Of a stretch of 64,000 nucleotides of DNA, positions 13,350 to 58,502 are shown one piece after another. The number at the start of each line of letters is the position of its first letter. Within the stretch, counting starts at the first letter, position 1. The stretch spans positions 64,001-128,000 of the forward strand of contig CAVTUQ010000039.1 of NCBI GenBank assembly GCA_963737905.1. Reading direction: 5' to 3'. The position numbers and the translations under genes were made by a program. A model generated the notes under the pieces. The model was given only the letters and a program-made list of their open reading frames with translations. It had not been told where the DNA came from and searched no databases. The DNA is from an uncultured delta proteobacterium (lineage in GTDB: Bacteria; Desulfobacterota; Binatia; UBA9968).

Positions 13350-14357
13350 ATGGGCAGAAAATGCTTGATGATCGTTTTTGCCTTGGCGACGCTGGTCGCT
13401 TTGGGCAAATTAGGTTTCGCGCAAGACAAAATTCTTATCTCCTATGGGGGATTCAACGAGACCGCTGGACCCTTGTGGGTCGGGACGGAAAAAGGCTTTT
13501 TTAAAAAATACGGTTTGGACGTCAGTGCGATTCAAGTCCGCAACGGCCAAGTCAGTTTATCCGCATTGATGTCGGGAGATGTCCAGGCTTTTTGGCCCGC
13601 CATTTCCTCGGTCTTGAGCGGCGTCTCCGGGGGAGCGAAAATCGGCTGCGTCGCGTCGCCTTTCAATAGGATAGCGCGAGAGCTCATCGTGCGGAAGGAG
13701 ATCGATTCTCTCGCGGCCCTCCGGGAAAAGGTCTTCGGGGTGCAGAGCATCGGTGGAGGATTCTGGCTGCAGACGATGATCGTTTTGGACCGGCTGGGTG
13801 TAGACCCCGAGAAGAACAAGCTGCAGATGCGAGTGATCGGCGATGAACCGACGATTCTTCAGGCCCTTCTCGCATCGAACATTGACGCTGCGGTGATCAC
13901 CTTCGCCTCCGCAGCGGTTGCAAAAAGGGCCGGCCTTCGTTCGCTGGCAAACACGGCGAATCTCAAGGTTCCTTACCAAGGAGTCGGCATTTGCACGCGC
14001 AGCGATCGGGTTGTCAATTCTCCGGACGTCATCCTGCGTCTGGCAAAAGGAATGATCGAAACGGTGGCCTTCAGTCAAGACCCGCGCAATAAGCGCGAAG
14101 TCATGGCGGTACTCAAGAAAAACCTTCGCTTGAGCTCTGACGCGGACGCCGAGAAATCATACGATTCGCTCCGTATGGTGTCGACTCTCGACGTCGCACC
14201 CGACCCGGAGGCATGGAAGAATATTCAAAGGCTCGTCTCCCGGGTGACTCCGAAGGTCGCGCAGCTAGATGTCAATCAGATTATTAATGTTGGCTTCGTG
14301 AAGACACTTGAAGAAAACGGCTTCTTGCCTGAGACGAGAAAGAAGCTGGGACAATGA
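13350..14357 (+). CDS. NitT/TauT-family substrate-binding protein
   Basis: Signal peptide, LWVGTEKGFFKKYGLDV, ALMSGDV, LEENGFL. Confidence 0.87.
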   Translation: MGRKCLMIVFALATLVALGKLGFAQDKILISYGGFNETAGPLWVGTEKGFFKKYGLDVSAIQVRNGQVSLSALMSGDVQAFWPAISSVLSGVSGGAKIGCVASPFNRIARELIVRKEIDSLAALREKVFGVQSIGGGFWLQTMIVLDRLGVDPEKNKLQMRVIGDEPTILQALLASNIDAAVITFASAAVAKRAGLRSLANTANLKVPYQGVGICTRSDRVVNSPDVILRLAKGMIETVAFSQDPRNKREVMAVLKKNLRLSSDADAEKSYDSLRMVSTLDVAPDPEAWKNIQRLVSRVTPKVAQLDVNQIINVGFVKTLEENGFLPETRKKLGQ

Positions 14358-17697: not shown

Positions 17698-18630
17698 CTA
17701 AAGTCGCCACAGATCACGAAAGCAGATTGCCACCACCTGCTCATAAGGCACCGGGCCGGCGAGATGACCGATGGATTGAGCGAATCGGTTGAGCCCAGCG
17801 ACGGCCTCTTCATAAATGACAGGATCGTAAAAAGTTAAGTCTCGTTGAACGATCGTCGTAATCAGCTCGGCCGCCTCCAGGGGGAACTTGCGCCGCCCCA
17901 CCTCGGCGGCCAGGGTCGGATCTCCGCGCAGGGCTTTTTGTGTTTTTACAATGGCCCTGACCGCAGCAGCGACACTTTCCGCATCACGCTCAATTTGCAC
18001 TTCGGTTGTAGCCAGCCCGGCAAACGTGAAACGGCGGACATCGGCGGGATCATCGCCGCGCCGGACGTCGACGAGGATTTTTCCTACTCCCCGCCGAACC
18101 GCAGTTTCGCCACCCATAGCGTTCGCCCAAAAACCATCGATCTGCCCTTCCTCCAGGGCACGGGCAGCGAATACCCCGAAGGACACATCCCGTCCCTTGG
18201 CCCCCGGCAACTCCACGATCTGAAGATCCCTGTCCGGATCGATCTTTGCGTCGATGAGCATCTGGCGCAGAGCCAGGTCCGGCCCCTCTGCTGCCGTCAG
18301 ACGCAGCCCCTTGACTGCGCTCAGGTCGCCCCGCTGCGCGGCTAGATCAGCTCGGACGACGAGCAACCAAGGGGTCCCCTGCGAGAGTGCGACGACGAGT
18401 TTCGCCCCTTCCCATCGGGGGAATTCCGTCAGGATATCGTGTACCGAGCCGGCGATCATGGCATCCACCGCCCCATTTCGCAGCGCCTTGGTTGCCCCAA
18501 GCATAGGCACCAGCTCGATGTGTGCCTTCAACCCCTCCGCCTTGTAAAAACCCAGCACCTCCGCCGCCAGCGCTGGAAAACAGGTGTTGCTGACGAGATC
18601 TACCGCTGCGATGCGCATCTGCACAGCCAT
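17698..18630 (-). CDS. NitT/TauT-fold binding protein lacking a signal peptide
   Basis: AAEVLGFYKAEGL, ALRNGAVDA, ALEEGQIDG; begins directly with MRIAAVDLVSNTCFP. Confidence 0.8.
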   Translation of the reverse strand: MAVQMRIAAVDLVSNTCFPALAAEVLGFYKAEGLKAHIELVPMLGATKALRNGAVDAMIAGSVHDILTEFPRWEGAKLVVALSQGTPWLLVVRADLAAQRGDLSAVKGLRLTAAEGPDLALRQMLIDAKIDPDRDLQIVELPGAKGRDVSFGVFAARALEEGQIDGFWANAMGGETAVRRGVGKILVDVRRGDDPADVRRFTFAGLATTEVQIERDAESVAAAVRAIVKTQKALRGDPTLAAEVGRRKFPLEAAELITTIVQRDLTFYDPVIYEEAVAGLNRFAQSIGHLAGPVPYEQVVAICFRDLWRL

Positions 18631-18704
18631 TCTCCTAAACAACCAAGGGAATAAGCCGAAAGTTAAAACCTGGATCTGACTCCCAACATGTGCCGCATTT
18701 GCCT

Positions 18705-20750: not shown

Positions 20751-23159
20751 TTAGGGTACCGAACCCGCTGCAAGCGTCTCGCTGGAAGGAAAGTCTCCGG
20801 AAGATTCCGACTCCAAGGCCAGCGCCAGTGCCTCGTCGACCGTTTTTAAGAACTCGAAACGAATACCCTCGCGTGCCGCGGTCGGAATCTCCTCCATGTC
20901 CCGTCGATTCAATTCCGGGAGCAAGACACAAGAAATTCCGGCTGTCTTGGCTGCCAGCACTTTTTCCTTAATTCCTCCTACCGGCAACACCAACCCCCGA
21001 AGACTGATTTCGCCCGTCATCGCGACATCCTTGCTGATTCGTCGGCCGGTGAGAAGTGAGACGATAGCAACAAAAAGGGTGACTCCCGCGCTGGGCCCGT
21101 CTTTAGGTATGGCGCCTGCGGGGATATGGATGTGCAAATCGTTCTTCCGGAAGATTTCAGGGTTGATGCCGAGCGTTTCGGCGCGTGATTTGACAAGACT
21201 CCACGCGGCTTGCGCGCTTTCTTTCATGACATCGCCGAGCTGACCCGTCAATTGCAACCTGCCGTCCCCGGGCATTTTAGTCGCTTCCACAAACAAGATG
21301 TCCCCACCAAAAGGGGTCCATGCCAGGCCCGTGGCTACGCCGGGTAGACTGGTGCGTAGCGCGATCTCATTGAAGAACTTTTGCGGCCCGAGATATTCCC
21401 GGATCGATTCCTTATCGATTGTCGTCTTTTCCTTGAGCCCCTCCGCCACCCTGGTCGCGACGCCCCGACAGACAGTTCCTAGCTCCCGCTCAAGTTGACG
21501 AACCCCGGCTTCACGCGTGTAGGATCGAATGATTTCGCGAATCGCATCGTCAGTAAAAGCGATGACATCGGTAGCCAGCCCATTTTCGGCAATCTGTCGA
21601 GGAATCAGATAATTTTTGGCGATCGCCAGTTTTTCCACCTCGATATAACCAGCCAATGGCAAGATTTCCATCCGATCGCGGAGAGGGGCCGGAATCGTAT
21701 CGAGCACATTCGCCGTCGCGATAAACAAGACTTGGCTCAAATCAAAAGGCACGGCAAGATAATGGTCTTGAAAAGTCGCGTTTTGCGAAGGGTCCAGGAC
21801 CTCCAGCAGCGCCGCCGATGGATCGCCGTGGAAACTGGCGCTGAGCTTATCGATTTCATCCAACATAAAGACGGGATTCTTGGTGCCCGCTTTCCGAATT
21901 CCTTGAATAATATTTCCGGGAAGGGCACCGACATAAGTGCGCCTGTGCCCCCGGATCTCTGCTTCGTCGTGGACACCGCCAAGACTCTGGCGCACGAATT
22001 TCCGGTTCATAGCCCGAGCGATGCTTTGCCCGAGGGACGTCTTGCCCACTCCGGGAGGACCGACAAAACACAAGATTGGGCTCTTCCCATGGGGCACGAG
22101 TTTACGAACTGCCAGAAATTCAACGATTCGCTTTTTTACTTTTTCCAAATCGTAATGATCCGCATCGAGAATTTCACGCGCTTTCGGAAGATCAATTTGT
22201 TCCTCGCTGGAAAGGCTCCAGGGAAGCTCCACCATCCAATCGAGATAAGTCCGTAGAGCTGAATATTCTGCGGCAATTTCGGGAATCCGCTCGAACCGAG
22301 TGAGCTCCCTGAGTACTTCCTTTTCCACCTCGGGCGGCATTTTTGCATCGTAGATTTTCTTACGCAGATCCTCGACTTCCTGGCTCTGGCCGTCTTCTTC
22401 GCCCAGCTCCTTTTGTATGGCCTTTAGCTGCTCGCGAAGGAAATACTGGCGTTGTGTCCGGTCCATCGATTCTTTAGTTTGCTCACCAATCTTTTTGCTC
22501 AGTTCCAGCAGCTCGATCTGATGCGCGAGCTTTTGTGAAACTTTTTCCGCGCGGGCGGCGGGGTCCAGAATCTCTAGAAGCTCCTGCTTCTCGGGAAGCG
22601 AGAAGTCCAATGTCGACGCGATCATGTCAATCAGCGACAAAGGATTTTCGATCCTTTCGATGGTGGTTTTTATTTCGTTCATCGGCTCAGGCAATAAGCT
22701 TAAAGCCTTCACGGCTTCCTGGCGCAGGTGCAAAATTCTCGCTTCGAATTGCTTCGATTGAGGTATCTTTTCTTCAATCAACGTCACGCGAGCTATAAAA
22801 AACGGATCCGTCTCGAGAAATTCGGCGATTTCAAAACGTTGGCGGCCCTGAATGATAATCTGGCGCTGGCCGTCAGGCAGACCGAACATGCGCAGTACAT
22901 CGGCGGAGGTGCCCACTCGAAACAGATCTTTCGAATGGGGTGCCTCTATCGCGGGATCTCGCTGGGCAATGAACCCCACAGAGAATTGTTGGCGGACCGC
23001 TTCCTCTATCGCTCGGACGCTAGCGGGGCGTCCAACCACCAGGGGCATAACCGTGGCGGGAAAGAGCACCGTGTTGCGCAGCGGCAGAATGACCAAGGCC
23101 CCGGCAGGAATAGTAAGGCGAGGTTTTGACTTAGGGGCTTCCTTCTCTTCTGCAGTCAT
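20751..23159 (-). CDS. lon: ATP-dependent protease La (LonA)
   Basis: LON N-domain LPLRNTVLFP, GPPGVGKT, PKDGPSAG catalytic Ser, GGIKEK Lys. Confidence 0.97.
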   Translation of the reverse strand: MTAEEKEAPKSKPRLTIPAGALVILPLRNTVLFPATVMPLVVGRPASVRAIEEAVRQQFSVGFIAQRDPAIEAPHSKDLFRVGTSADVLRMFGLPDGQRQIIIQGRQRFEIAEFLETDPFFIARVTLIEEKIPQSKQFEARILHLRQEAVKALSLLPEPMNEIKTTIERIENPLSLIDMIASTLDFSLPEKQELLEILDPAARAEKVSQKLAHQIELLELSKKIGEQTKESMDRTQRQYFLREQLKAIQKELGEEDGQSQEVEDLRKKIYDAKMPPEVEKEVLRELTRFERIPEIAAEYSALRTYLDWMVELPWSLSSEEQIDLPKAREILDADHYDLEKVKKRIVEFLAVRKLVPHGKSPILCFVGPPGVGKTSLGQSIARAMNRKFVRQSLGGVHDEAEIRGHRRTYVGALPGNIIQGIRKAGTKNPVFMLDEIDKLSASFHGDPSAALLEVLDPSQNATFQDHYLAVPFDLSQVLFIATANVLDTIPAPLRDRMEILPLAGYIEVEKLAIAKNYLIPRQIAENGLATDVIAFTDDAIREIIRSYTREAGVRQLERELGTVCRGVATRVAEGLKEKTTIDKESIREYLGPQKFFNEIALRTSLPGVATGLAWTPFGGDILFVEATKMPGDGRLQLTGQLGDVMKESAQAAWSLVKSRAETLGINPEIFRKNDLHIHIPAGAIPKDGPSAGVTLFVAIVSLLTGRRISKDVAMTGEISLRGLVLPVGGIKEKVLAAKTAGISCVLLPELNRRDMEEIPTAAREGIRFEFLKTVDEALALALESESSGDFPSSETLAAGSVP

Positions 23160-23587
23160 GAAAGTTTCCTCAACTCGATGATGAGCAGTCCGTCCTGAAG
23201 CGAAACTTCTCCGAGCGCTAAGGAGTGTCTTCCCTCGATCAGAGCCAGGCGCCGTTCGAAACGTCCAAGCGGGATCTCCCAGATCTTTAGTTCCCCGTCA
23301 TTGCAGCATTTCGGCAGGGGCCGTTCGCCGGCGATCACGAGTTCGCGTCCCTCCAACCGCACGTTCATACGATCAGCCGTGACTCCGGGTAGAGCTGAGA
23401 TCACCCACAAGCTTTCATCGGTCTCGACGACGTTTACAGGCGGTTCCCAAGCGGGGCTTCTGCCGTGAGAAGAACGATACTGAACACCCGCAGCAATTTG
23501 CAAAAAATTCCTGTGGATTCGCTCCACTTGTTGAAGCAGGTCATTGGCTCGGTGCCACATCACAATATCCCAATGCCGGGACGCCAT
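23156..23587 (-). CDS. Hsp20/alpha-crystallin small heat-shock protein
   Basis: WEPPVNVVET, LPGV, EIPLGRFER, DGLLIIEL; ATGA overlap with lon. Confidence 0.88.
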   Translation of the reverse strand: MASRHWDIVMWHRANDLLQQVERIHRNFLQIAAGVQYRSSHGRSPAWEPPVNVVETDESLWVISALPGVTADRMNVRLEGRELVIAGERPLPKCCNDGELKIWEIPLGRFERRLALIEGRHSLALGEVSLQDGLLIIELRKLS

Positions 23588-23643
23588 ATCAATCAACCCT
23601 CAAGTCAAGAATAAAGTAATTCTCTATCAGACACTCATTCAAA

Positions 23644-23672
23644 AGCCTAGGATTCGAGAGCCGCGTTGTCAA
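23644..23672 (-). promoter_or_regulatory. Sigma70-type promoter for hsp20-lon
   Basis: Minus strand TTGACA-17 nt-TAGGCT. Confidence 0.55.
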
Positions 23673-23892
23673 GAAAGTGAACCCAAAGAGTGACAAAAAT
23701 GTCAGCCTGTCAACGCCATGGCAATCCGGGTGACAGCCGCGATTTGTACAATTCCAAATTTTCCCCAAATGACCGTATGGCGTGAGAGCGGGTGTGGGTG
23801 GCTTGATTCTTGCCCTCTAAGTTTAAGGCTTGGGTTGGTGACGCTCAAAAACTGGCCCCAGCCCCACGAAAGAACGAAGCCGACCCAGAAAA

Positions 23893-24129
23893 ATGATTTA
23901 CCTAGCTACTTACCATAAAAAAAGTGAGTTTCGGCCACTCTGCCAGAAGTCTAGAAGGCTGATCTTTATCGAAGCCGAAGCTAGGCTAGCCCTCGATAAG
24001 GTTATAGCACTGGTTAGAAACCTTACAGAAGGCAACTTCGAAGAATCAAGCGTTGAGATCATTGGTCAAAAGGCCTGGGACGCCGCAAAGATAAAGCATC
24101 CGCGAATCAAATTCTACAAACTGGATTGA
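23893..24129 (+). CDS. Hypothetical protein, 78 aa
   Basis: Isolated ORF with protein-like amphipathic pattern; no recognised motif. Confidence 0.5.
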   Translation: MIYLATYHKKSEFRPLCQKSRRLIFIEAEARLALDKVIALVRNLTEGNFEESSVEIIGQKAWDAAKIKHPRIKFYKLD

Positions 24130-24185
24130 AAAAGAGCAGGAGTGACGAATGTCCTTGGAGGAGAGCCCTGCATCGAAAAAAAATC

Positions 24186-24214
24186 TTGACAGCGACTTAT
24201 AAACGACCGATAAT
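24186..24214 (+). promoter_or_regulatory. Sigma70-type promoter
   Basis: TTGACA-17 nt-GATAAT; next ORF starts about 330 nt downstream. Confidence 0.55.
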
Positions 24215-24544
24215 TTGTGTCCATAACTCTCCCATCGGTGACACGACAGCGAGCCTACAGGAAACTCCTACCCGTTAGGAAAGGCGAGTTAGCTCTCAAT
24301 TGTTTGCAGGTGTCAATAAAACGTCACCGAATGTCAAGAAAAAAATCATTCAAAAGCTCATTTGTTCCTTTCAGGAACCTATGGATCTAAGTTGAGTCAA
24401 CGCTTCGTTGGATCGACGTATTTGGCTTATGAACGATTGCGCACCGCCCATCCAAACACAAACATTCGAGCAGATTTTGGATCTATAGCCTTTTGAATTG
24501 CGCCCCTCACAGCGGGCGACACGGGAGGATAATCAAGAAGGTCT

Positions 24545-24934
24545 ATGAATGCCATGATTGTGGAAAACATAATAAGCTGGTTTCTGTTCGCTCTGGCCTC
24601 TACGTGCACCTTATCATTTGCATCTACCGTTTATGATAACTTTCTCAGCTGGAAACGACGGGAGCGCGACAGAAAGGCAACAACGAGGATTGTCTCTCTT
24701 GCAGATTCAAAGCCGAGCCCGCTCCTGATGGAACATTCGTTGCCCCGTGGCTATGATAGTCCCGAACTCTTCCGCGAGGATCTATGGATTCGAAGGATAG
24801 AGCATAGCCGTCGGGAACATGCCGCGATGGCGGCGTCACTCCCACAAGTGAAAGCGGGTCTCGGAGCTTCTGAAGACTATTCCAGGCGACTCTGTGAGAT
24901 GCTGGCTCACCACGCAAGGACCCGGCCCCGATAA
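24545..24934 (+). CDS. Hypothetical protein with N-terminal membrane anchor
   Basis: Hydrophobic N-terminus followed by basic KRRERDRK and helical tail. Confidence 0.55.
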   Translation: MNAMIVENIISWFLFALASTCTLSFASTVYDNFLSWKRRERDRKATTRIVSLADSKPSPLLMEHSLPRGYDSPELFREDLWIRRIEHSRREHAAMAASLPQVKAGLGASEDYSRRLCEMLAHHARTRPR

Positions 24935-25267
24935 TCGTTTGGTTGTTATTCGTAAGTGATTATTCTTTGCGGGTGACCCCACCCGTGACCTCCACACTCC
25001 GCCTTCATTTTAGCTAGCAAAGCACCGTCAGCGCGTTCTTTTTTCCTGACGTCATTCATGTTTCCCGGGTAATGAGAAGCTAAGCCCTCGGGCGATTATC
25101 CTCGCACACCAATTCCCATTGCAGCAAACTCTCGGATATGAAAATCTCAGGAAGCTTAAGATCGAGCCTAGTTTTTGATGCCCTTTCTGCTTCCGGATTA
25201 TGCCTTTCATTTCGACTCTTCGATAATATTGGGTGTGTTCTAAAGCCGACATTGTAAGGAGGCCAAC

Positions 25268-26341
25268 ATGTCTGTCGATTTTGTCACCAACCAGGAGATC
25301 ATCCTCGCAGCGCGCCGAAATCTCACGCAAAACGTGTGGAACTACCTTTGTGGTGGGGCCGAGTCTGAAACAACGATGCGTCGGAACCGCTTTGGGCTAG
25401 ATAGCTTGGCCTTTCGGCCACGGGTCCTTGTCGACGTTTCCAAGATCGATACCTCGACGACCTTCCTTGGACACAGACTGAGAGTTCCGGTTATGTTGGC
25501 GCCGATCGGATCACTGCAAGTGATTACGCCGGAGGGTGGAGTGGCCGTCGCCAGGGCGGCTGAAGAGTTTGGGACAATCAACTTCGTCAGTTCCGTGACT
25601 CAACCGAGCCTAGAGGAAATCGCGGCTGCCGGCCGCAGTCCCAAGGTCTTTCAGCTCTACGTGCAGGGTGACTTGAAGTGGATCGAGAACCTCCTCCTTC
25701 GCGTTAGCAAGGCTGGTTATGCAGCGCTCTGCCTAACCGTGGATACCGCACACTATGGTCACCGCGAGCGTCAAATGATGGATCGTTGGTTGCCGCCGAG
25801 TCGGCGCGGCTCAGGTTATGAGTATCGCGCCGCCCTCACGTGGGAGACCCTGGATGCGATTAAAGAAATGGCAAATCTGCCGTTCATTTTGAAGGGTATA
25901 GCAACAGCCGAAGACGCAGCCATCGCAGTCCAACACGGCGTCAACACAATCTATGTCTCCAATCATGGGGGACGCCAACTGGACCACGGGAAAGCGACAA
26001 TCGAGATGCTGCCAGAGATTGTGCAGGCGGTTGACGGTAAAGCGCAGATCGTGCTGGACGGCGGCATCATGCGCGGCAGCGATGTTCTAAAGGCCATTGC
26101 TTTGGGTGCAACGGCTGTGAGCATCGGCAAGCTCCAGGGCTGGGGATTAGCGGCGGCCGGTCAAGCGGGTCTGGTCCGTGTTCTTGAATTACTAGAGAGC
26201 GAGATTACCACGACCATGGGACTCCTCGGCGTCACCCGTCTCAATCAACTTACTTCCATTCATTTGTGTAAGGTGCAACCCTTGGGGCCAACTCATGAAA
26301 TGAGTGCGTTTATCCATATGCCGGGTGGGCAACTCCTATAA
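25268..26341 (+). CDS. FMN-dependent alpha-hydroxy-acid oxidase/dehydrogenase
   Basis: FRPRVL, FQLY, TVDT, ILKG, SNHGGRQLD, DGGIMRGSD. Confidence 0.93.
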   Translation: MSVDFVTNQEIILAARRNLTQNVWNYLCGGAESETTMRRNRFGLDSLAFRPRVLVDVSKIDTSTTFLGHRLRVPVMLAPIGSLQVITPEGGVAVARAAEEFGTINFVSSVTQPSLEEIAAAGRSPKVFQLYVQGDLKWIENLLLRVSKAGYAALCLTVDTAHYGHRERQMMDRWLPPSRRGSGYEYRAALTWETLDAIKEMANLPFILKGIATAEDAAIAVQHGVNTIYVSNHGGRQLDHGKATIEMLPEIVQAVDGKAQIVLDGGIMRGSDVLKAIALGATAVSIGKLQGWGLAAAGQAGLVRVLELLESEITTTMGLLGVTRLNQLTSIHLCKVQPLGPTHEMSAFIHMPGGQLL

Positions 26342-26509
26342 TGCTCGGAGCCTATTCCATCGAACCTTTTACGGAATAAAATCTCTTGACACATGTCCCA
26401 CCCGTTTACTATATGCGATTACATCAGCAGCAAAGTAAGTCTTTCCGAGAACGAAACTTGCTGCGAGTTGAGGGAAGACATCCGAGCAGGCCGTTCACTG
26501 CAGGGGATT

Positions 26510-26743
26510 ATGATGGGGTTTCGAATTCTTTTTGATGAAGACAAGCTGAAACAGGGAATCTACCAACAAGAAGACGACCTTCTCTCACAAAGCAACGGCG
26601 TGGGGTGGCCGAAGGGCACCTGGTTTCAGAAACGTCTCCGCCAAGTCAGACAACAGCAACGAAGAAAACTCGCGGAAACCGACTTCGTATACGAATGCGC
26701 CTTGGGTACGATTATCGTTCGACAATCGAACGGCAGGGACTAG
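26510..26743 (+). CDS. Hypothetical small protein (77 aa) with WPxxTWFxxRL motif
   Basis: Part of ORF 26393..26743; ATG 26510 preceded by AGGGG; motif shared with 30727..30918. Confidence 0.55.
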   Translation: MMGFRILFDEDKLKQGIYQQEDDLLSQSNGVGWPKGTWFQKRLRQVRQQQRRKLAETDFVYECALGTIIVRQSNGRD

Positions 26744-27150
26744 ACTAACCCGAATTTCCAGCTCTCAAGCCACAACGATTTCAATGTAACGATGAAGGTC
26801 ATCGGCGGATAGACCCGTGAGCCGAGCCTAGATCCTGGAAAAATTTTTCGCAGACCCGGTTCCCGACCTGCAGCGCGTTTCCGACGTCCAGGAAGCCTCG
26901 GCGCGCGCCGTGGAGGGCGATGCAAGCTCTGGGTCCGTCGCTTCCGAAAGTCGATCCAAAAACTCTTTTACGAAGGCTCAGAGTCTGAAGGTTTCTTGGA
27001 CAAAACTAAGCTCCGCTAACCTTTGCGTGCCACGCAATGGCCCGTAATTGCGAGTTGCCGGGTTGAACAACTATGTCCAACGTGGGCCTAACTACGGTTG
27101 ACAGACCACTGAAAACTGCCTTTTTTGTAGCTAATTTGCATCGGTCCTAA

Positions 27151-27167
27151 TCGGCATGTCCCTTGCG
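27151..27167 (+). promoter_or_regulatory. Sigma54 (-24/-12) promoter
   Basis: TCGGCATGTCCCTTGCG = GG-N10-GC with TTGC, 37 nt before ATG 27204. Confidence 0.65.
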
Positions 27168-27203
27168 TCCCCGGAAGTTTTACGCCAATCAAGGAGGATT
27201 GCC

Positions 27204-28001
27204 ATGACGAGAATGGTATCTAGGTGCTTGTTACTCTTCTTCTTGGTTTTGGGATGCACGTTGAAAAAAGAAGAGGCTCAGGCGCCAAAGGTTCCGGAGC
27301 CGACGCCCGCTCCGATCTCATCGACTCCTGTGGAGCCCCAAGCAAGCCCAGTAGCAACGCCCGCAAACCCAACGTTCACCAAAGAGGACATCCGGATGTT
27401 GCAAGCGCGACTGAAAGCGGCCGGCTTTTACGTGGGACCCATCGATGGGATACCCGGGCCGAAGACCAGATCCGGGATCCTTCGGCTGCAAGCAGCATGC
27501 GGGAGCCTCAAGGACCTGTTAGAAAATTCTGCGGCGGGAAATCAAACAGGGAAACTGGATAGTACGGGCAATAGTCGAAAGAGCGAAGACATCCGTCTGA
27601 TCCAAGTACGACTGAAGGATGCCGGTTTCGACCCGGGTCCGATCGATGGGGTTTCGGGATCTAAAACGACAGCGGCGATTCTACGCTTTGAAGCGGGCTG
27701 CACGATGCTTAAAAATTTGCCGCCGCATTTGGATGAGGCACCTCAAACCGCCGACAAAGCAATATCTCTCACTCGGGCGGAGATGCGCTATCCGACCGCA
27801 GCAAAATCGATCGGATTTGGCTCCGATACGGTGAGTGCGAGTGGAAATCAAACTCTCAGCAGCGAAAAGATTCGGCAAGAACAATTGCGCTTGAGGGACG
27901 CGGGCTTTGACCCGGGTCCGATCGACGGGATTCTAGGACCTAAAACCAAAGCAGCCATGCAGCGATATCAAAAGTCGCTCGCACTGAAAAATCCACGCTA
28001 A
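27204..28001 (+). CDS. Lipoprotein with three peptidoglycan-binding (PG_binding_1-like) repeats
   Basis: AAGGAGG RBS, lipobox VLGC, Pro-rich linker, three QxRLxxAGF(D/Y)xGPIDGxxGxKT repeats. Confidence 0.85.
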   Translation: MTRMVSRCLLLFFLVLGCTLKKEEAQAPKVPEPTPAPISSTPVEPQASPVATPANPTFTKEDIRMLQARLKAAGFYVGPIDGIPGPKTRSGILRLQAACGSLKDLLENSAAGNQTGKLDSTGNSRKSEDIRLIQVRLKDAGFDPGPIDGVSGSKTTAAILRFEAGCTMLKNLPPHLDEAPQTADKAISLTRAEMRYPTAAKSIGFGSDTVSASGNQTLSSEKIRQEQLRLRDAGFDPGPIDGILGPKTKAAMQRYQKSLALKNPR

Positions 28002-28027
28002 CTATCGACACACCGGCTCCCGAGCCT

Positions 28028-28153
28028 CTACATGGCCAGGCTTAGGAAGTAGGAACGATCGATGAAAACTACGATGCGCATGAGCGCGTAAAGCATCGCC
28101 ATGTATCCACAAAGAAGCCCGGCGATCGTCATCGAGACAAACAGCCTATACAT
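28028..28153 (-). CDS. 41-aa hydrophobic small protein (not in ORF track)
   Basis: GGAGGA RBS then MYRLFVSMTIAGLLCGYMAMLYALMRIVVFIDRSYFLSLAM*; sigma54 motif upstream. Confidence 0.65.
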   Translation of the reverse strand: MYRLFVSMTIAGLLCGYMAMLYALMRIVVFIDRSYFLSLAM

Positions 28154-28198
28154 ATGAAGTTCCTCCGTTTGGTTGCTCAGGTATCGCTAAACTACAAG

Positions 28199-28215
28199 CG
28201 CAAGCTTGATGCCAA
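28199..28215 (-). promoter_or_regulatory. Sigma54 (-24/-12) promoter
   Basis: Minus strand TTGGCATCAAGCTTGCG, near-consensus GG-N10-GC. Confidence 0.7.
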
Positions 28216-28399
28216 GTGACTTTGCTACCTGGGACCTATAACAACCCTGCGGAATAGAAATGGAATTTTAGGAACGCCAGCTTGGCACAAGCTCAGAGGC
28301 AGAAGCGGAAGTCAACTTTATGATACAGGGGAGTATCCGAAATGACTCAGTCACAGTGGAGACAGTCTGGGACGGCCTGTCACACCTTACCCCAACTAA

Positions 28400-30079
28400 T
28401 CACCTGGCTACGGTGGTTTTGCGGCGACCGATAGCGGCTTCGGCTCGGGGACTGATTGCCCGCTGAACGGCGACGTTTAACAGCGCCGGCTGTCCAGAAG
28501 CGAAGGCACGCTGCAATGCTGGTTCCAGATCTTCAGCATGCTCCACAAACTCTCCGTACCCACCGAGTCCTTGAACCACCCGTTCGTAGCGCGTTTGCAG
28601 TAACTCGGTAGCGACAGGCCGGCCGTATAAACCTAGCTGGATTTGCCGGTCGATGCCCCAAGCGGAATCGTTACCTAATATCGCCACGATGTTGAGTCTG
28701 TGACGCACCGCCGTATCGAATTCCATTCCATTGAAACCAAAGGCTCCATCGCCGGTCAGCATGATCACCCGTGAGTCAGGGTAAGCTACTTTCGCAGCCA
28801 GCGCTGTGGGGAGCGACGATCCCAACATCCCTAGACTAGAAACGTAAAACCAACGCTTGGGCTTGATAGCGGGCAACAAAGACCGGGCGAAATGGCAAAA
28901 GTCTCCACCATCAAACACCAGGCAGTCGTCGGGACGCAGGATAGACTTGATGGTCTTGTGGACGAAGAGGGCATGCATCGGTGTCTCGGATCGAGCCAGA
29001 TTTTCTGCCCAGACCGACTGCCCAGCACTCACCTCGCGCAATTCATCCAGCCACGGAAGGTCCTTCCATGTGAAGCTGGCCGCTTCCTTCGTCATCTGAT
29101 CCAAAACACTGGTGACATCACCCACCATGCCCACGGCAACTCCTCGATTGCGGCCGATCTCCAAGGCCGAAGGATCGATTTGGACGATCTTAGCCGCCGC
29201 CGCTATGTGAGGCGGACGACAAAAACCAATGGTGAAGTCTTGCTTGCGCCCCAGAAGCAAAACAACGTCGGCCTCGCGAACCTTGGCGGCTGCTCGATTC
29301 AAGCCGCGCTCGAAAAATCCAAAGACATACGTGTGATCGTCAGATACCAAGCCCCGCGATTGCTCTTCCGTCAGCAACGGTAGATGGGTGGTTTCGATGA
29401 AGCGTTGGAGGGCCTCACCGGAAAGCGTATAACCGGCGGCGCTGCCAGCGATGATCAGAGGTTTCTTTGCCTGGTGCAGAAGCTCGATCGCCCGCCGCAC
29501 ACTTTCCGGATGGGCGAGCATCGACTCCTTCGCGCGGTATTCACCCGGTTCATGCAACACCACCTGCTCTTCGTCTAAGCTCTCTTCTTGTAGGTTGATG
29601 GGGATCGTCAAGTGAACCGGCCCGCGCCGGCCACTGAAAGCCAGGCGCATTGCCCGTCGGATAAATTCTGGAATCCTTCGCGCATCATCGACTAGAAACG
29701 AACCCTTGGTCATCGGCGCAGCCATATGCACCTGGTCGATCTCCTGCTGGCCCCCACGTCCCAAGTCATGGAGGTCGGCGCAGCCGGCAATGGAAATGAC
29801 GGGGCTTTCACTGTGCATGGCATTGGTCAGGCCGGGAATTGCATTGGCAAAGCCCGGAGTAGTGTACATGCAAATGCCGGGCTGTTCCGTGATGCGACCC
29901 CACGCGTCCGCCATATGGACCGCCGCCTGTTCGTGACGGGTATCGATGATGCGGAAGTTCTGATCCGCCATACTGTCTAACACCGGCAGAATATGATCGC
30001 CGGCCAAGGCAAAAATATTGGCCACCCCTTCGAGTTTGAGCGCTCTGCAGATTAGCTCAGCTCCAGTGATTCGACCCAT
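28400..30079 (-). CDS. ThDP-dependent enzyme, acetolactate synthase/2-hydroxyacyl-CoA lyase-like
   Basis: RHEQAAVHMADAWGR, GRRGPVHL, DGGDF, GDGAFGF...ND. Confidence 0.9.
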   Translation of the reverse strand: MGRITGAELICRALKLEGVANIFALAGDHILPVLDSMADQNFRIIDTRHEQAAVHMADAWGRITEQPGICMYTTPGFANAIPGLTNAMHSESPVISIAGCADLHDLGRGGQQEIDQVHMAAPMTKGSFLVDDARRIPEFIRRAMRLAFSGRRGPVHLTIPINLQEESLDEEQVVLHEPGEYRAKESMLAHPESVRRAIELLHQAKKPLIIAGSAAGYTLSGEALQRFIETTHLPLLTEEQSRGLVSDDHTYVFGFFERGLNRAAAKVREADVVLLLGRKQDFTIGFCRPPHIAAAAKIVQIDPSALEIGRNRGVAVGMVGDVTSVLDQMTKEAASFTWKDLPWLDELREVSAGQSVWAENLARSETPMHALFVHKTIKSILRPDDCLVFDGGDFCHFARSLLPAIKPKRWFYVSSLGMLGSSLPTALAAKVAYPDSRVIMLTGDGAFGFNGMEFDTAVRHRLNIVAILGNDSAWGIDRQIQLGLYGRPVATELLQTRYERVVQGLGGYGEFVEHAEDLEPALQRAFASGQPALLNVAVQRAISPRAEAAIGRRKTTVAR

Positions 30080-30726
30080 TATCGCTCCTTTAGGTTTGCC
30101 GACGAAAAACTTTCCTTCTTATGTGCAATTGCTTCATCCTCTGTATCATACAATTGCGTAAAGACAGTCAAGCGTTTCCGGGGGTCATAATCACCATCGT
30201 GCGAACAGTCACAGAGCGAGCCTGTAGAGGGCACACGGCGAAACCGGTCAAAAAATCAATGCGGGGGAAAACATTCAATTAAAAGTGCAGGTCATCGCCT
30301 CATGCCGCGCGCGGCTTAATTCGAATCGCGACGGGGCATTTATGGACGCAGCGCGGTGGGCCCTACGACTGCCGAAGATCAAACTATTGCAGTAGAAAAG
30401 TTAAACAGTTTTTTTAGTCGCGCCGGAAGTATTGGTCAAAGGCCCACGACGCTAATACAAAACCAAAGAAGTAACCAACGAATTGTGTGAGTCCGGGCAC
30501 AGATTTCAGCATGTACCAGAAAGTCGCTAACAGCACTATGCCATACGTACCCATGGGCCATTCACGCAACCGTCAGCAAACCAGAGCTGCTATCGGACTG
30601 TTCTTGCTCGGGACGAGTAACTGAGGGGACCATTTTTTAACCGTGGGTGGCGGGCGCCTTAACGATCAAGCCGTTGGTCCTGCGCGCAGAAACTTGAAAA
30701 AGCTTTACCCGCAGGGTCGCGCTTGA

Positions 30727-30918
30727 TTAAGCTTTTTCGGCTTGCGAATCGCCGCCAGGTTTGGCCTCCATCGTCACGGATTCCTTCTGGTTGGTGCCAG
30801 GCTTGCGATGGGCTTCCTGCTCCCGTGCCCGCAACGCATTCAGTCGCTCCCGGAACCAAGTTTTCTCGGGCCAGGCCCAGTTATGATCAGAGTTGGGGTC
30901 GAACTCCGGCGGTTTCAT
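30727..30918 (-). CDS. Hypothetical small protein (63 aa) with WPxxTWFxxRL motif
   Basis: MKPPEFDPNSDHNWAWPEKTWFRERLNALR...; sigma54 motif immediately upstream; no clear SD sequence. Confidence 0.55.
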   Translation of the reverse strand: MKPPEFDPNSDHNWAWPEKTWFRERLNALRAREQEAHRKPGTNQKESVTMEAKPGGDSQAEKA

Positions 30919-30937
30919 GGCGATCTGAGGATTGCCC

Positions 30938-30954
30938 AGCAATCAGCATGCCAT
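30938..30954 (-). promoter_or_regulatory. Sigma54 (-24/-12) promoter
   Basis: Minus strand ATGGCATGCTGATTGCT, near-consensus TGGCA-N-TTGCT with GG-N10-GC spacing. Confidence 0.7.
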
Positions 30955-31139
30955 AGCCTTTAGTGCGAATTTCCGAATGATTTTTCAGGAATCGATGGAA
31001 TGACTGAACGAAAACCGTTACTTGCCTTTACTCGCCGCCAAATTTTGAACGTTCAGCCGAACCGCTATAAATTGGCAAAGAAACAGATGCGCCTGGAGGG
31101 CAAGTCGTCACTTTCTCCGACCACGAACAAGAACGCTGT

Positions 31140-31769
31140 TTATGAGAAACTCTTCCAATTCAGGAATGACTTATCGGAATAGAGCGCGTCAACATCCGAA
31201 GGAACTGTGATGCCGCGGCTTTTTAAATAATCGGCGATCGGCTTGAGAGGCAGGCCCACGGCGGCCAGATAGTCGCCGCGAATGGACTCGATCAAATTGC
31301 GACCTTCCCCTTGGATCGAATAGGCGCCCGCCTTATCGAGCGATTCGTCACAGGAGAGATAATGCTCGCACTCTTTCTCCGAGTAGTCGCGCATCTTGAC
31401 CGAGACTTCTTCGACGATCCTAAGACCCGGCCCGCCCAAATCATCGAGGATGGCGACGCTGGTAAAGATCCGATGGATTTTTCCTGAAAGCAAGCGCAGC
31501 ATCCGTTTCGCATCCGCTATTCCATCAGGTTTACCGATCTTGCTAAGGTTTACTAGAATCATAGTGTCGCTACCGACAACTATGCTTTCGGGATAATTTC
31601 TAGCCACCGATTGGGCTTTTCCTACGGCGAAATCGAGAACCTCCTCTGCAACGGATCGATCGCTTATCGAAAGTTCATCGAACTCTGGAGCGATTACCTC
31701 GAACGGCAGACCGAGAAGCGCGATGATCTCACGACGGCGAGGCGAGGTGGAGGCCAGGAGGAGTCTCAT
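31140..31769 (-). CDS. maf: Maf-family nucleoside triphosphate pyrophosphatase
   Basis: LLLASTSPRR, GSDT, GKP, DKAGAYSIQG, VGLP. Confidence 0.93.
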   Translation of the reverse strand: MRLLLASTSPRRREIIALLGLPFEVIAPEFDELSISDRSVAEEVLDFAVGKAQSVARNYPESIVVGSDTMILVNLSKIGKPDGIADAKRMLRLLSGKIHRIFTSVAILDDLGGPGLRIVEEVSVKMRDYSEKECEHYLSCDESLDKAGAYSIQGEGRNLIESIRGDYLAAVGLPLKPIADYLKSRGITVPSDVDALYSDKSFLNWKSFS

Positions 31770-32947
31770 GAAAACAAAAAAGTCGTGTTCGTGACTCGTG
31801 AATCGTTACCGGGAAGCGCAAGCTCGGCGGGATCGAACCGCGCGCCGAGCGATCCGCCGTAGGTCCTGAGACACTGGACAACTTCATCGAAGTGGTTCAC
31901 GCGCACCATCTGCGCGCGTAGCTGCGCCGCCCCAGGGGAATCGCAACAGTACCACGCCAGATGTTTGCGCATACCAACGAAACTTCGGATCACGTTGTGT
32001 TTTTCAAAATGACGGCTATGCTCCAGGAGGACGCGAAAACGCTCCTCCAGACCGATGGACGGTGAATCAATCGTTAAACCGGCAGCGGAGCGCAAAGCCT
32101 GCTTCGCCTGGTCCTTGGCTCTGAAGATCCACGGATTACCCTGGGCAGCGCGCCCGAGGAGGACGCCGTCGACCCCGGTTTCACGCACGCGGCGGAAAAC
32201 CGCCTCCATGTGTTTTACGTCTCCGTTACCGAGAATGAGAGTCGGGGAATTCTTTGCAATCTCGACGGCACGCCCGATCGCTTCCCAATCGGCGTTGCCC
32301 TTGTAACCCTGCTGGAGAGTCCGGCCGTGAAGAGTGATGGCCGCTAGACCCTCCGCCAGCAGAGTTTGCATCCAGTCCTCGACGACGACGCGGTCGTAGC
32401 CGACCCGCGTCTTGACCGACAGAGGGATGAGACGCCGCCAGGCCGGGGTCTCCAGTCCGCTCCTAAGTCGATTTGAAGTCTTGATGCCCTGGATTAACTC
32501 CGGGCTGATCTTGAGATCGTACAGAGTTTGTCCTTCAACCCAGTCTTTGATGCCTTGGCCTGCCGCCTGGATGATCGAACGAGCTAAATCTGGCGTGCGA
32601 ATTAGAGCCGCCCCGCTACCCGTGGCGGCAACTTTTTTTGCCGGGCAACCCATATTAATATCCAAGCCATCAAAGCCAAGTTCACAAACGATGTGCGCAA
32701 CCTTGTAGAACATTTCCGGCCTATGACCGTAGACCTGTGCAACCACCGGACGTTCGATCGGGTCATACATCAGGTCTTTGATGAGGCTGTGGGGTGCAAA
32801 GAAGGCGGTCTCGACATTGACAAACTCCGTAAATATAACATCCGGATCGCCGTGCTTTGCCGTGATAAAACGAAAAGAAGCATCGGTGACTCCATCCATG
32901 GGTGAAAGACCGATAATGGGCCTAACTATTTTTTGCCAGAAATTCAT
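31766..32947 (-). CDS. dus: tRNA-dihydrouridine synthase
   Basis: SPMDGVTD, DINMGCP, SVKTR, LHGRT, GNGD, GRAAQGNPW, MRKHLAWY. Confidence 0.93.
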   Translation of the reverse strand: MNFWQKIVRPIIGLSPMDGVTDASFRFITAKHGDPDVIFTEFVNVETAFFAPHSLIKDLMYDPIERPVVAQVYGHRPEMFYKVAHIVCELGFDGLDINMGCPAKKVAATGSGAALIRTPDLARSIIQAAGQGIKDWVEGQTLYDLKISPELIQGIKTSNRLRSGLETPAWRRLIPLSVKTRVGYDRVVVEDWMQTLLAEGLAAITLHGRTLQQGYKGNADWEAIGRAVEIAKNSPTLILGNGDVKHMEAVFRRVRETGVDGVLLGRAAQGNPWIFRAKDQAKQALRSAAGLTIDSPSIGLEERFRVLLEHSRHFEKHNVIRSFVGMRKHLAWYCCDSPGAAQLRAQMVRVNHFDEVVQCLRTYGGSLGARFDPAELALPGNDSRVTNTTFLFS

Positions 32948-33153
32948 GTTGCTTGGTCGTTAGGATACCATTGGCTCCCTAACCCTTTCAAATGGCACTT
33001 CAGTTGCGAAGTTTGACGTAACGAGTTTGAAGGAAGGATAAGAACAAGGATGAAAGCGGAGTTATCGATTCGGGACAGCGGGAAGGACTTATGTATCTAA
33101 CAAGCACTTGCCGCACGTTCTTACGGGTATAGAATGGAATCTCGCGCACCAAC

Positions 33154-34227
33154 ATGAAGATCGCTCAGATCACCAGCGTGTATATCTCCGTTCCACCGAA
33201 GACCCATGGGGGAACGGAGCGGATCGTCTACCACCTTTGCCAACAGCTCGATCGGCGCGGGCATCATGTCGAGCTTTTCGCGTCAGGAGATTCGCAAGTC
33301 ACTTGCACGTTGCAAGCGGTCTTGCCGGTCGCCACGCAGTATGATCCCCAATCAACGTTCTACCTGGAAAAGGAGTATGAGGCGCGCAACACCTACAATC
33401 TTTATCGCCAGGCGGAACGCTTCGACGTCATTCACGCTCACTGGACAACCCTCGCCCCCTATTTTTCTGCGCTTGCGACAATCCCCACACTGGTCACCTA
33501 TGCTTATATTGAGAAGGAGCTGCACCAATACTATCAGAAACATTTTCCGCGTTGCCTTCCGGTATGCGTCAGCCGCGCTCAGGCAAACATGCTGGGAGAC
33601 GATTCGCTTCCGGTGGTTTACAACGGGGTGGATCTAGACGAGATTCCCTTTAATGACCGGCCGGAAGATTTCTTCATGATCGTCGGCCGCATGACCCCCG
33701 GGAAGGGCATTGCCGAGGCGATCCGCATTGCCAAAAAGGCGAAAGTGAAGCTCCTCATTGTCGGTCATGTCACAACCCACCTACCGTGGAGCGAGGAGTA
33801 TTTTTTAAAAGAAATCAAGCCGCACATCGACGGCGATCACGTTCGTTATATCGAGCGTTTGGCTTATCACGACATCGTGCAAACGATGGGCAAAGCCAGA
33901 GGCTTTCTCTTTCCGCTGCAGTGGGATGAACCCTTCGGTATGGTGGTCATCGAAGCGATGGCTGCGGGAACGCCGGTGCTGGCGTACCGCCGCGGCTCGA
34001 TGCCGGAATTAATCAAGAACAGTGAGACCGGCTACCTGGTTGAAAACGAGGAAGAGATGGTCGAGATGACGCATCGGGTCTCAACCGTGGATCGCGCACG
34101 CTGTCGCAACTGGGTGCAACAGAATTTTTCGGTAGAACAAATGGTGGACCGCTACGAGCAGCTCTATCGAAAGGTAACCAGCGGGCACTGGAGCCTGAAG
34201 GGCAAACCAGAGCGCCACCATGCGTGA
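33154..34227 (+). CDS. Glycosyltransferase family 4
   Basis: VPPKTHGGTER, YNG, GRMTPGKG, EPFGMVVIEAMAAGTPV. Confidence 0.92.
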   Translation: MKIAQITSVYISVPPKTHGGTERIVYHLCQQLDRRGHHVELFASGDSQVTCTLQAVLPVATQYDPQSTFYLEKEYEARNTYNLYRQAERFDVIHAHWTTLAPYFSALATIPTLVTYAYIEKELHQYYQKHFPRCLPVCVSRAQANMLGDDSLPVVYNGVDLDEIPFNDRPEDFFMIVGRMTPGKGIAEAIRIAKKAKVKLLIVGHVTTHLPWSEEYFLKEIKPHIDGDHVRYIERLAYHDIVQTMGKARGFLFPLQWDEPFGMVVIEAMAAGTPVLAYRRGSMPELIKNSETGYLVENEEEMVEMTHRVSTVDRARCRNWVQQNFSVEQMVDRYEQLYRKVTSGHWSLKGKPERHHA

Positions 34228-36572: not shown

Positions 36573-37454
36573 TCAGAGAGTAAACAGAGAAGCGAGGGGA
36601 GCCAGCCGAGGAATCGCCCCGACCTCGACCAGCATTTGCATCTCGGCGGCCGCGAGCTTTTGCTCCGCTTCGGTGAAGGTGAACTCGATCTTCGGATAAC
36701 GAGCTGAAGCTAGGAGCGCCTCCTTGTCCCCACCGTAACGCTTGACAAACTCCTCGCCGATCTCATCCAGGTGGGCTTCGCTATATGCGAAGGAGCGGCG
36801 AAAGGCCGCGAGCAAGGTCTCTTTGATCCCTGGATAACGTTGCAGCAGATCCTCCCGCGCTGCAATCATGTGCTTGATCATCTGGTCGAACCCATGAAGC
36901 TTTCGCCATGCCTCGCCGTCGGTGTAAAGGCAACGCACACCATCGGCTTCTTCGCCGCGGAAGAAAAAATGATCGAGCAAAACAACGGCGTCCACCTTGC
37001 CGCTCCGCAGCACGTCGAGGAGTTTCTCCTGAGGGTGAGACTCCCAGCGCAGCGTGCGGTCGTCTACCCCATAAACGCGGCGCAGCAGATAACGGTGAAT
37101 CGCGTGGGCGCCCTGGTGCGTCGCAATGAGACGGCCGGCGAGATCCTGCGGAGCTTCCACCGGGCCGTCGATGCGGACGAAGACCCCGTTGCCCTTCATC
37201 GTCGATTTCCATTCCGTGGAGAGCCCGATAATGGGCGCTCCCTGAAGTTTTCGGCTGAGAAAATTCGGCAGGTAGATATTCGCCACCTGGACGTCGCCAC
37301 GGATCAGAGCCTCCTCCTGCTCATGGCTGGGCGGGTCGGGCAGCTCGATCACTTTCATGTCAAAACCCTCCGGCCTCACCTTCCCAGTAGCCAGGGCATA
37401 ATACGTGCGAAACATACAGAAACGGTTGCGATAGTGCGCGAAGGTCAATTCCAT
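36573..37454 (-). CDS. Cytoplasmic binding-protein-fold protein (MqnA/MqnD- or NitT/TauT-like)
   Basis: ALIRGDVQVA, DLAGRLIA, LRSGKVDAVV, AFRRSFAY; no signal peptide. Confidence 0.7.
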   Translation of the reverse strand: MELTFAHYRNRFCMFRTYYALATGKVRPEGFDMKVIELPDPPSHEQEEALIRGDVQVANIYLPNFLSRKLQGAPIIGLSTEWKSTMKGNGVFVRIDGPVEAPQDLAGRLIATHQGAHAIHRYLLRRVYGVDDRTLRWESHPQEKLLDVLRSGKVDAVVLLDHFFFRGEEADGVRCLYTDGEAWRKLHGFDQMIKHMIAAREDLLQRYPGIKETLLAAFRRSFAYSEAHLDEIGEEFVKRYGGDKEALLASARYPKIEFTFTEAEQKLAAAEMQMLVEVGAIPRLAPLASLFTL

Positions 37455-58437: not shown

Positions 58438-58502
58438 AGGCCATTTTACGCCCGGACAATGCGCCGCTCATCTATTCTCCAGTTTTGAAAAAAGGAAGCC
58501 GG

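Follow-up and report, generated by a model that had tools for sequence, protein, structure and literature searches.

Two small open reading frames (ORFs) from an uncultured delta proteobacterium, which lie 4 kb apart, belong to a superfamily of very small proteins (roughly 55–80 residues) which, having no match in any of the libraries searched, proved to be undescribed. Both lie in the 64,000 nt stretch of DNA analysed here, referred to as the window (positions 64,001 to 128,000 of contig CAVTUQ010000039.1, assembly GCA_963737905.1, lineage Binatia). ORF1 (26513..26743, plus strand) encodes 76 aa from its consensus start, and ORF2 (30727..30918, minus strand) encodes 63 aa. Translation and a six-frame scan located a shared motif in each protein, WPKGTWFQKRLRQVR in ORF1 (26606..26650, plus strand) and WPEKTWFRERLNALR in ORF2 (30829..30873, minus strand), the latter also defined by the alignment of its family (alignment A1). 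Comparison with homologues showed ORF1 and ORF2 to be real protein-coding genes and paralogous members of one superfamily. Coding status, homology, distribution and promoter architecture are the aspects that we regard as established from comparative evidence.

The original prediction, made from the letters of the window alone, had presented the two ORFs as orphans that share a motif, and as members of an undescribed family that docks on a common partner, one of them placed behind a sigma54 promoter. The family is real, undescribed and larger than had been thought, and the sigma54 promoter is strongly supported by its conservation. The description of the proteins as orphans did not hold, as ORF2 has 95 homologues (family A, 56–111 aa in length and down to ~42 % identity) and ORF1 has 62 (family B).

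The shared motif of ORF1 and ORF2

The pattern WP..TWF..RL was found in exactly two places in a six-frame scan of the 64 kb window, ORF1 and ORF2. Both ORFs translate as had been proposed, and WPKGTWFQKRLRQVR and WPEKTWFRERLNALR are identical at 8 of 15 positions. The codon differences between the two copies (CCG/CCC, ACC/ACT, TTT/TTC, CGT/CGA and CTC/CTG) are present in the DNA. From the start first assigned to it, 26510, ORF1 would encode 77 aa; the family consensus places the start at the second ATG, 26513. Longer readings of 116 aa and 71 aa extend into the promoters and were rejected. The 116 aa reading of ORF1 is wrong because a conserved sigma70-type stretch lies upstream of family-B genes.

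By itself, the resemblance of the pair is not beyond chance. When compared singly by BLASTP, ORF1 and ORF2 gave 25 bits (E=1e-5, for that one comparison). Inspection of raw sequence amounts, however, to comparing every part with every other, and the pair was accordingly placed in an all-against-all comparison of the 834 stop-to-stop ORFs of 40–130 aa in all six frames, which yielded 20,321 non-overlapping pairs. The ORF1/ORF2 pair scored 29.8 bits and ranked 11 of 20,321, while the top scores in five triplet-block shuffles of the window were 28.5–31.4 bits. Pairs scoring at least 25 bits numbered 71 in the real window versus 35–65 in the shuffles. It is the family evidence, and not the pair score, that leads us to accept the relationship as real.

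Families A and B are conserved at the protein level

The homologues that make up families A and B are all unnamed or annotated as 'hypothetical protein', and the motif is the most conserved stretch in each family. In family A (alignment A1), residues N13, W14, W16, P17, K19, T20 and W21 are invariant, and the stretch that continues past the motif, FRERLNA..ARE.E, is at least 90 % conserved. Family B (alignment A2) shows at least 90 % conservation of the motif, of an N-terminal segment (FRILFDE..KLKQG.Y) and of a C-terminal segment (VYEC.LGT..R). A joint alignment of 110 family-A and family-B sequences has W, P, T and W invariant in 110/110, with F, R and L at least 90 % conserved.

The proportions of non-synonymous (pN) and synonymous (pS) differences were calculated from the DNA of 31 genes of family A, eight of family B and 27 of a third family, C, which is described below. 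Motif columns were not counted, as these are forced by the search pattern. Synonymous sites were saturated (pS 0.60–0.82), with pN of 0.08–0.35 in the conserved parts. The 12 codons past the motif in family A gave pN 0.235 and pS 0.763. Outside the motif, family B had pN 0.15–0.35 versus pS 0.60–0.72, with pN of 0.165 for the tail and of 0.35 for the part preceding the motif; the region before the motif in family C had pN 0.297. Saturation at synonymous sites, combined with constraint on amino-acid sites, shows both ORFs to be coding. Profile–profile comparison of A with B gave a probability of 83.7 % (E=8e-6). Together with the family-C profile, these analyses bear out the protein-level conservation and common descent that had been proposed for the two proteins.

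A third family ties families A and B together

A degenerate DNA pattern for W-P-x-x-T-W-F-[QR..]-x-R-L was searched for in 185,579 genomes, one per species, and matched in at least 118 places. Those listed, to which the locus counts given below refer, comprise 34 of family A, seven of family B, 28 of family C and 49 unrelated matches, with families labelled by regular expressions and L090 and L002 moved to family A. An example of an unrelated match is a 440 aa Thiobacillus protein, in which the pattern encodes other residues. Where two kinds of protein had been recognized, there is therefore a third and larger one, family C. Its proteins, mostly of 52–67 aa, follow the pattern M..W-Q-L-I-F.Q-S-[RK].N...Y..(8–10 residues)..N-W.W-P..T-W-F-Q.R-L, in which the front is like that of family B and N-W-x-W-P is like family A.

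Profile comparison matched C to A (probability 97.8 %, E=6.9e-13, 35 columns) and C to B (probability 97.8 %, E=1.1e-12, 54 columns), and the two families are tied together because the C profile matches both. Against the 1,528 six-frame ORFs of the window, a profile made only from family C (55 proteins) detected ORF1 (E=2e-13) and ORF2 (E=4.9e-13) and nothing else, the next best ORF having E=0.65.

When the joint A+B profile was run as a hidden Markov model exhaustively against 1.84 billion cluster representatives, it recovered 133 superfamily clusters at 50 % identity with E≤1e-3, 32 of which had E≤1e-10. One of them, P0193, is an 842 aa protein with 11 repeats containing G-W-P-A-K-T-Y (E=2.5e-7 to the joint profile). 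It is probably an unrelated repeat protein, and we excluded it from the motif counts, leaving 132 clusters. WPxxTW is present in 129/132 clusters. Of these 129, 128 have R at +9 and L at +10, 115 have W at −2 and 92 have N at −3. Most members are short, with a median of 77 aa and 124/132 no longer than 135 aa. A single element extends across the whole superfamily, N-W-x-W-P-x-x-T-W-F-[QR]-x-R-L-x-x-[LVI]-[RK].

Two intermediates, P0184 and P0187, combine a C-like front with B-like features. In a quick tree, B forms a clade (support 95) inside the diversity of C, and the A-type rows fall in one group (support 84); the tree has 56 columns only and is weakly resolved, and we draw no order of events from it. 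A number of members have unusual architectures. The motif occurs twice in tandem within one small protein in L093, P0164 and P0182. The rare longer forms P0198 and P0222 have a C-like N-terminus and a hydrophobic segment, membrane-spanning as judged by eye, and P0222 additionally has a bacterial SH3 domain. P0257 carries a YtxH-like N-terminus ahead of the motif (29.9 bits, under the curated cut-off), and P0214, P0284 and P0211 have an additional C-terminal segment. P0212 combines an A-like front with the end of a Ham1-type pyrophosphatase, and could be chimeric or a miscalled ORF.

Novelty and distribution of the superfamily

Pfam returned no family at E≤0.1 for either ORF in either start version, and NCBIfam none at E≤1 for P0001 and P0002. 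For the 116 aa reading of ORF1, NCBIfam gave only two sub-threshold matches, which scored 13.3 and 12 bits where the curated cut-offs are 177.8 and 216. Family C produced five scattered single Pfam matches among 55 members (best E=0.014). PADLOC gave one weak match only (Cas11, E=0.012, 13.5 bits), PHROGs gave none for A, B or C, profile searches of PDB sequences with A1, A2 and A5 gave none at E≤10, and the ESM Atlas held no usable match for either protein. The zf-HC2 anti-sigma motif H-x3-C-x2-C (PF13490), which was examined only because the family-C gene at locus L012 neighbours zf-HC2 genes, has no match in A, B or C. In the openly searchable literature, we found no paper on the motif, and none of relevance on small proteins or sigma54 in Binatia or Binatota. 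These searches agree with the proposal of an undescribed family. 'New' refers here to the family; the newness of its mechanism hinges on finding the partner.

At least 69 family loci were identified, all in metagenome-assembled genomes (MAGs). At least 50 assemblies carry family loci, and at least 15 of these have two or more different families. Among the matches listed, the record titles read Candidatus Binatia, Deltaproteobacteria or delta proteobacterium, Thermodesulfobacteriota and Syntrophobacter or Syntrophobacteraceae, with a few of Verrucomicrobiia, Acidiferrales and Proteobacteria. Judged by these titles, the superfamily appears almost confined to MAGs that are labelled either Deltaproteobacteria or Binatia, the latter being a class within the candidate phylum Binatota. 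Among the matches listed, the MAG nearest to the window has ~80–82 % nucleotide identity to it, and carries A and B on one contig and on opposite strands, as in the window. Searches by tblastn of plasmids with ORF2 and of phages with ORF1 returned nothing.

Each family has its own regulatory context

A sigma54-type −24/−12 promoter, TGGCATGCTGATTGCT (TGGCAT-N5-TTGCT; 30938..30953, minus strand), ends 19 nt before the ATG of ORF2. The sigma54 consensus has GG and GC 10 nt apart within TGGCAC-N5-TTGCW, and TGGCATGCTGATTGCT has the two dinucleotides at the same spacing. We scanned for the pattern TGG[CT][ACT][CT]-N5-TTGC[ATC] within 80 nt of the ATG, and found it in 33/33 listed family-A upstream regions (window included), ending 16–37 nt before the ATG. 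The background of 10 matches in 649,510 nt corresponds to 0.04 expected, and the conservation of the pattern supports the sigma54 promoter that had been predicted ahead of one member. Upstream of the listed genes of the other families it was found in 0/6 for B and 0/28 for C. Transcription at sigma54 promoters begins ~11 nt past the GC; with the promoter 16–37 nt from the ATG, the family-A leader would therefore be only ~6–27 nt in length. No Shine–Dalgarno sequence was seen in family-A leaders. The only other match to the sigma54 pattern in the window, TGGCTTGATTCTTGCC (23799..23814, plus strand), is ~95 nt before a 78 aa ORF (23893..24129, plus strand) that has no family match.

A conserved upstream element, AACGGTTTTCGTTC (31006..31019, minus strand; family seed GACAAATTTTGTTC), is positioned 66 nt upstream of the ORF2 promoter. 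In 25 non-redundant family-A upstream regions the shared 14-mer scored 239 versus 206.7±1.9 (maximum 211) in 30 shuffles, and it lay 65–69 nt upstream of the promoter in 14 of the 25. Its location, where an activator site is expected, makes the 14-mer a candidate enhancer-binding-protein site, although we know of no activator site that it matches. No enhancer-binding protein is encoded among the 43 + 12 window ORFs scanned. By eye, a second, A/T-centred element, GAACGTTCAAAATTTGGC (~31036..31053, minus strand), is apparent ~30 nt upstream of the first, and similar strings are visible in L017, L064 and L026. A plus-strand ORF that overlaps the upstream element (31000..31182) has a similar counterpart only in the close relative L064, and was not taken as a gene.

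Family B is associated with a different type of promoter. A sigma70-type promoter-like element, TTGACA ... TACTATATG (26386..26415, plus strand), is located 127 nt upstream of the ORF1 start. The pattern TTGAC[AG]-N15-19-T[AT]nn[AT][ATG] was found ahead of the family-B genes of the window and of five of the seven listed loci (L020, L042, L081, L109 and L113); L045 has a variant recognized by eye, and L093 has only 135 nt of upstream sequence. The family-B sigma70-type promoter is predicted from this consensus match and its conservation.

Family-C genes have strong GGAGG ribosome-binding sites, and follow the gene of a conserved 140 aa protein in 13/19 flanked loci among the matches listed. Directly before the 140 aa gene there is a thioredoxin gene in nine of these 13 loci (L060, L061, L077, L011, L032, L043, L066, L067 and L075), and the order without thioredoxin is seen in L018, L031, L063 and L080. 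The 140 aa protein has no Pfam or PDB match and has an invariant Cys102 in 13 aligned sequences; its homologues fall into 1,404 clusters, all unnamed, and its profile found nothing in the window. An operon in which thioredoxin, a protein with an invariant cysteine and family C follow one another hints at a redox link for the family-C branch. Complex prediction for the 140 aa protein and a family-C protein, using both alignments, scored 0.02 versus a mark of 0.32, which speaks neither for nor against binding. At L012 the family-C gene is directly after an extracytoplasmic function sigma factor/zf-HC2 anti-sigma pair and before a second zf-HC2 gene, and in L013 and L032 a sigma54 activator gene adjoins family C. 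Several paralogues are thus present in genomes of this lineage, and their upstream regions and operons differ from one family to the next.

The motif may fold on a common partner

AlphaFold2 models based on the family alignments (63 and 96 rows) had a mean predicted local distance difference test score (pLDDT) of 57 for ORF1 (family B) and 60.7 for ORF2 (family A). The predicted template modelling score was 0.30, and the models lacked a packed core, with only a helix ordered. The predicted helix begins at the T-W-F of the motif, and spans residues 20–37 in ORF2, where the best block reaches pLDDT 86. The ORF1 model consists of a helix at residues 38–52 and a C-terminal hairpin, the remainder being of low confidence. 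A helix following the motif had been anticipated, and these low-confidence models are consistent with it. We read the motif as a turn rich in tryptophan, capping the beginning of a polar helix in which Arg, Gln and Glu are abundant. Three helix 18-mers had a mean hydrophobicity of −0.42 to −0.82 and a hydrophobic moment of 0.20–0.42, and did not show the combination of a hydrophobic face and non-negative mean hydrophobicity of a membrane-binding amphipathic helix. ORF2 has no cysteine and ORF1 has one.

The six invariant positions (W, P, T, W, R and L) suggest a specific contact or a structural core, and not a generic property. The invariant positions, the low-pLDDT monomers in which only the helix is ordered and the hydrophilic nature of that helix lead us to favour a specific partner. 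The proteins would be largely unstructured alone and would serve as small adaptors or regulators, with the Trp-capped helix folding onto one conserved partner, either protein or nucleic acid. Paralogues may bring different signals to the same site: an enhancer-binding-protein signal in A, housekeeping expression in B and possibly redox in C. The family-specific tails, a disordered charged tail in A and a Cys-containing beta-hairpin in B, could give separate effects. Putative docking of the motif on a common partner, as originally proposed, is plausible. The complete model, in which the Trp-capped helix folds on a specific partner and the paralogues deliver different inputs to the same site, is one that we infer tentatively, and we put its probability slightly below even.

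A number of points weigh against this model. The strict invariance of the motif could equally reflect a self-contained fold or an oligomer. There is some circularity in the motif statistics, since the motif was the basis of both the genome scan and the profile, and the family labels rest on regular expressions of our own making. Restriction to the lineage is judged from record titles, and a few titles name other groups. Finally, only Maf recurs as a neighbour of A and B (upstream, in 9/20 flanked loci among the matches listed), and the genes downstream of family A vary between listed loci. The A/B context gives no functional clue, because neighbours are not conserved beyond Maf.

The strongest of the alternative explanations, though one we consider unlikely, is that the motif is the core of a self-contained structure, such as a homo-oligomeric helical bundle held together by tryptophans, which would need no shared partner. 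Structural cores typically show the kind of invariance seen in the motif (W, P, T, W, R and L), B and C share an N-terminal hydrophobic segment and G.Y, family B has a conserved C-terminal hairpin, and some members (L093, P0164 and P0182) have a doubled motif. However, the monomer models have low scores and no packed core, and family A conserves nothing besides the motif helix.

We view with rather more doubt the proposal that the Arg-rich helix binds an RNA or DNA site and not a protein. A short polar, Arg/Gln-rich helix containing Trp is reminiscent of the Arg-rich RNA-binding peptides phage lambda N and HIV Rev. B and C have strongly basic helices (the protein that contains the 18-mer TWFQKRLRQVRQQQRRKL has an isoelectric point of 9.4, and a C representative has 10.0), position +9 is almost always R and +14 almost always [RK], and +7 is Q or R. 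Unlike lambda N and Rev, the superfamily has W, P, T, W and L as invariants. The invariant positions are mostly aromatic or aliphatic, and family A is not basic: its protein is about neutral (isoelectric point 6.7), with a helix that alternates Arg with Glu. Neither is there a conserved RNA element beside the genes, as Rfam gave nothing credible over 23000..33500 and the ORF1 leader folded no better than shuffles (z=−0.71).

It is highly improbable that the Trp-rich segment anchors the proteins at the membrane interface, where Trp/Arg-rich membrane-active peptides sit. Four aromatic residues in nine positions are in keeping with such an anchor, as are the rare fusions P0222 (predicted membrane segment and SH3) and P0257 (YtxH-like, sub-cut-off). 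The polar character of the helix disfavours it, the 18-mers being hydrophilic. A and B also have no signal peptide or membrane segment, and generic binding does not require invariant P, T and R.

We give hardly any credence to the proteins being regulatory leader peptides, or precursors of modified peptides that are made on the ribosome. Features that recall the Nif11 and NHLP leaders are the large number of short paralogues in a genome, their conserved front and, in A and C, a variable tail. Unlike in those systems, there are no maturation genes nearby, no Cys-rich cores, and a conserved tail in family B. Neither maturation enzymes nor peptidase-transporters were found among the 54 ORFs beside A/B or the 66 beside C, and the constant downstream gene of a regulatory leader or arrest peptide was not found at the listed family-A loci; a 51 aa ORF 3′ of ORF2 has counterparts at just two loci, L064 and L030. 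The hypervariable Cys/Ser/Thr-rich core expected of Nif11 and NHLP precursors is seen in neither ORF1 nor ORF2, and ORF2 lacks Cys altogether. Chance resemblance between two non-coding ORFs, for which it may be said that the pair scores no better than the best shuffled-window pairs, has a negligible probability, being refuted by the homologues, the alignments, pN/pS, the profile comparisons and the C-profile matches.

Genomic surroundings of ORF1 and ORF2

The two genes are surrounded by ordinary chromosomal genes, among them those for a flavin mononucleotide-dependent dehydrogenase, a thiamine-pyrophosphate enzyme, Maf, Dus and a protein with three peptidoglycan-binding repeats. Farther out in the window are UvrB, Lon, citrate synthase, PrpD-like enzymes and NMT1-type binding proteins. 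The NMT1/THI5-type solute-binding protein genes are unusually many, with eight within 64 kb (3205..4224, 13350..14357, 17698..18642, 36573..37454, 51656..52687, 55310..56389, 58485..59516 and 59513..60472). No tRNAs were found in the window.

The 51 aa ORF 3′ of ORF2 (30414..30569, minus strand) is hydrophobic and is 92 % identical in L064 and 66 % in L030, the only two loci in which it is conserved. It may be a real small membrane protein, and is not a constant neighbour of ORF2. An 81 nt segment from the last codons and stop of ORF2 (30655..30735, minus strand) folds at −29.3 kcal/mol (z=−2.48 versus shuffles), and may be a terminator-like hairpin, though a clear U-tract is lacking. A terminator-like hairpin with a T-run after it (26849..26872, minus strand) is situated between ORF1 and the peptidoglycan-binding gene, with no obvious minus-strand gene upstream of it. 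The region after ORF1 folded no better than shuffles (z=0.79).

Relation to known systems and biological significance

The organization of family A resembles that of the psp genes of enterobacteria, small stress genes that are controlled by sigma54 and an enhancer-binding protein. The likeness lies in the −24/−12 promoter with its 10 nt spacing, the fixed upstream element and the very small protein gene. Unlike the psp genes, family A has no membrane segment, and there is no sequence relation. A second parallel is found in the anti-adaptors IraP, IraM and IraD of E. coli, small proteins that respond to different signals and converge on RssB. The superfamily also has several small proteins per genome behind different promoters, for which a common target would be our inference. 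Whereas the Ira proteins are mutually unrelated and share no motif, the superfamily proteins are homologous and have an invariant motif.

A more speculative reading, which we think unlikely, is that interchangeable homologous mini-proteins form a signal-integrating switch, in which they compete via the Trp-capped helix for one partner site. The inputs to such a switch would be a sigma54 activator, a housekeeping sigma70 promoter and a thioredoxin-linked operon, and the tails would decide the outcome. If true, the switch would be a regulatory principle that has not been described for any bacterial phylum, and would be built on a fold or motif without known relative.

Binatia-type bacteria are common in soils and sediments but uncultured, and almost all of their lineage-specific genes are unannotated. 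In this case, a whole superfamily emerged from two 'hypothetical' ORFs, a reminder that gene callers miss or mis-start small proteins of such size. Regulatory handles are available for each family: a conserved sigma54 promoter and candidate activator site in A, a consensus sigma70 promoter in B and an operon linked to thioredoxin in C. The superfamily thus represents a tractable way into the regulation of an unstudied phylum.

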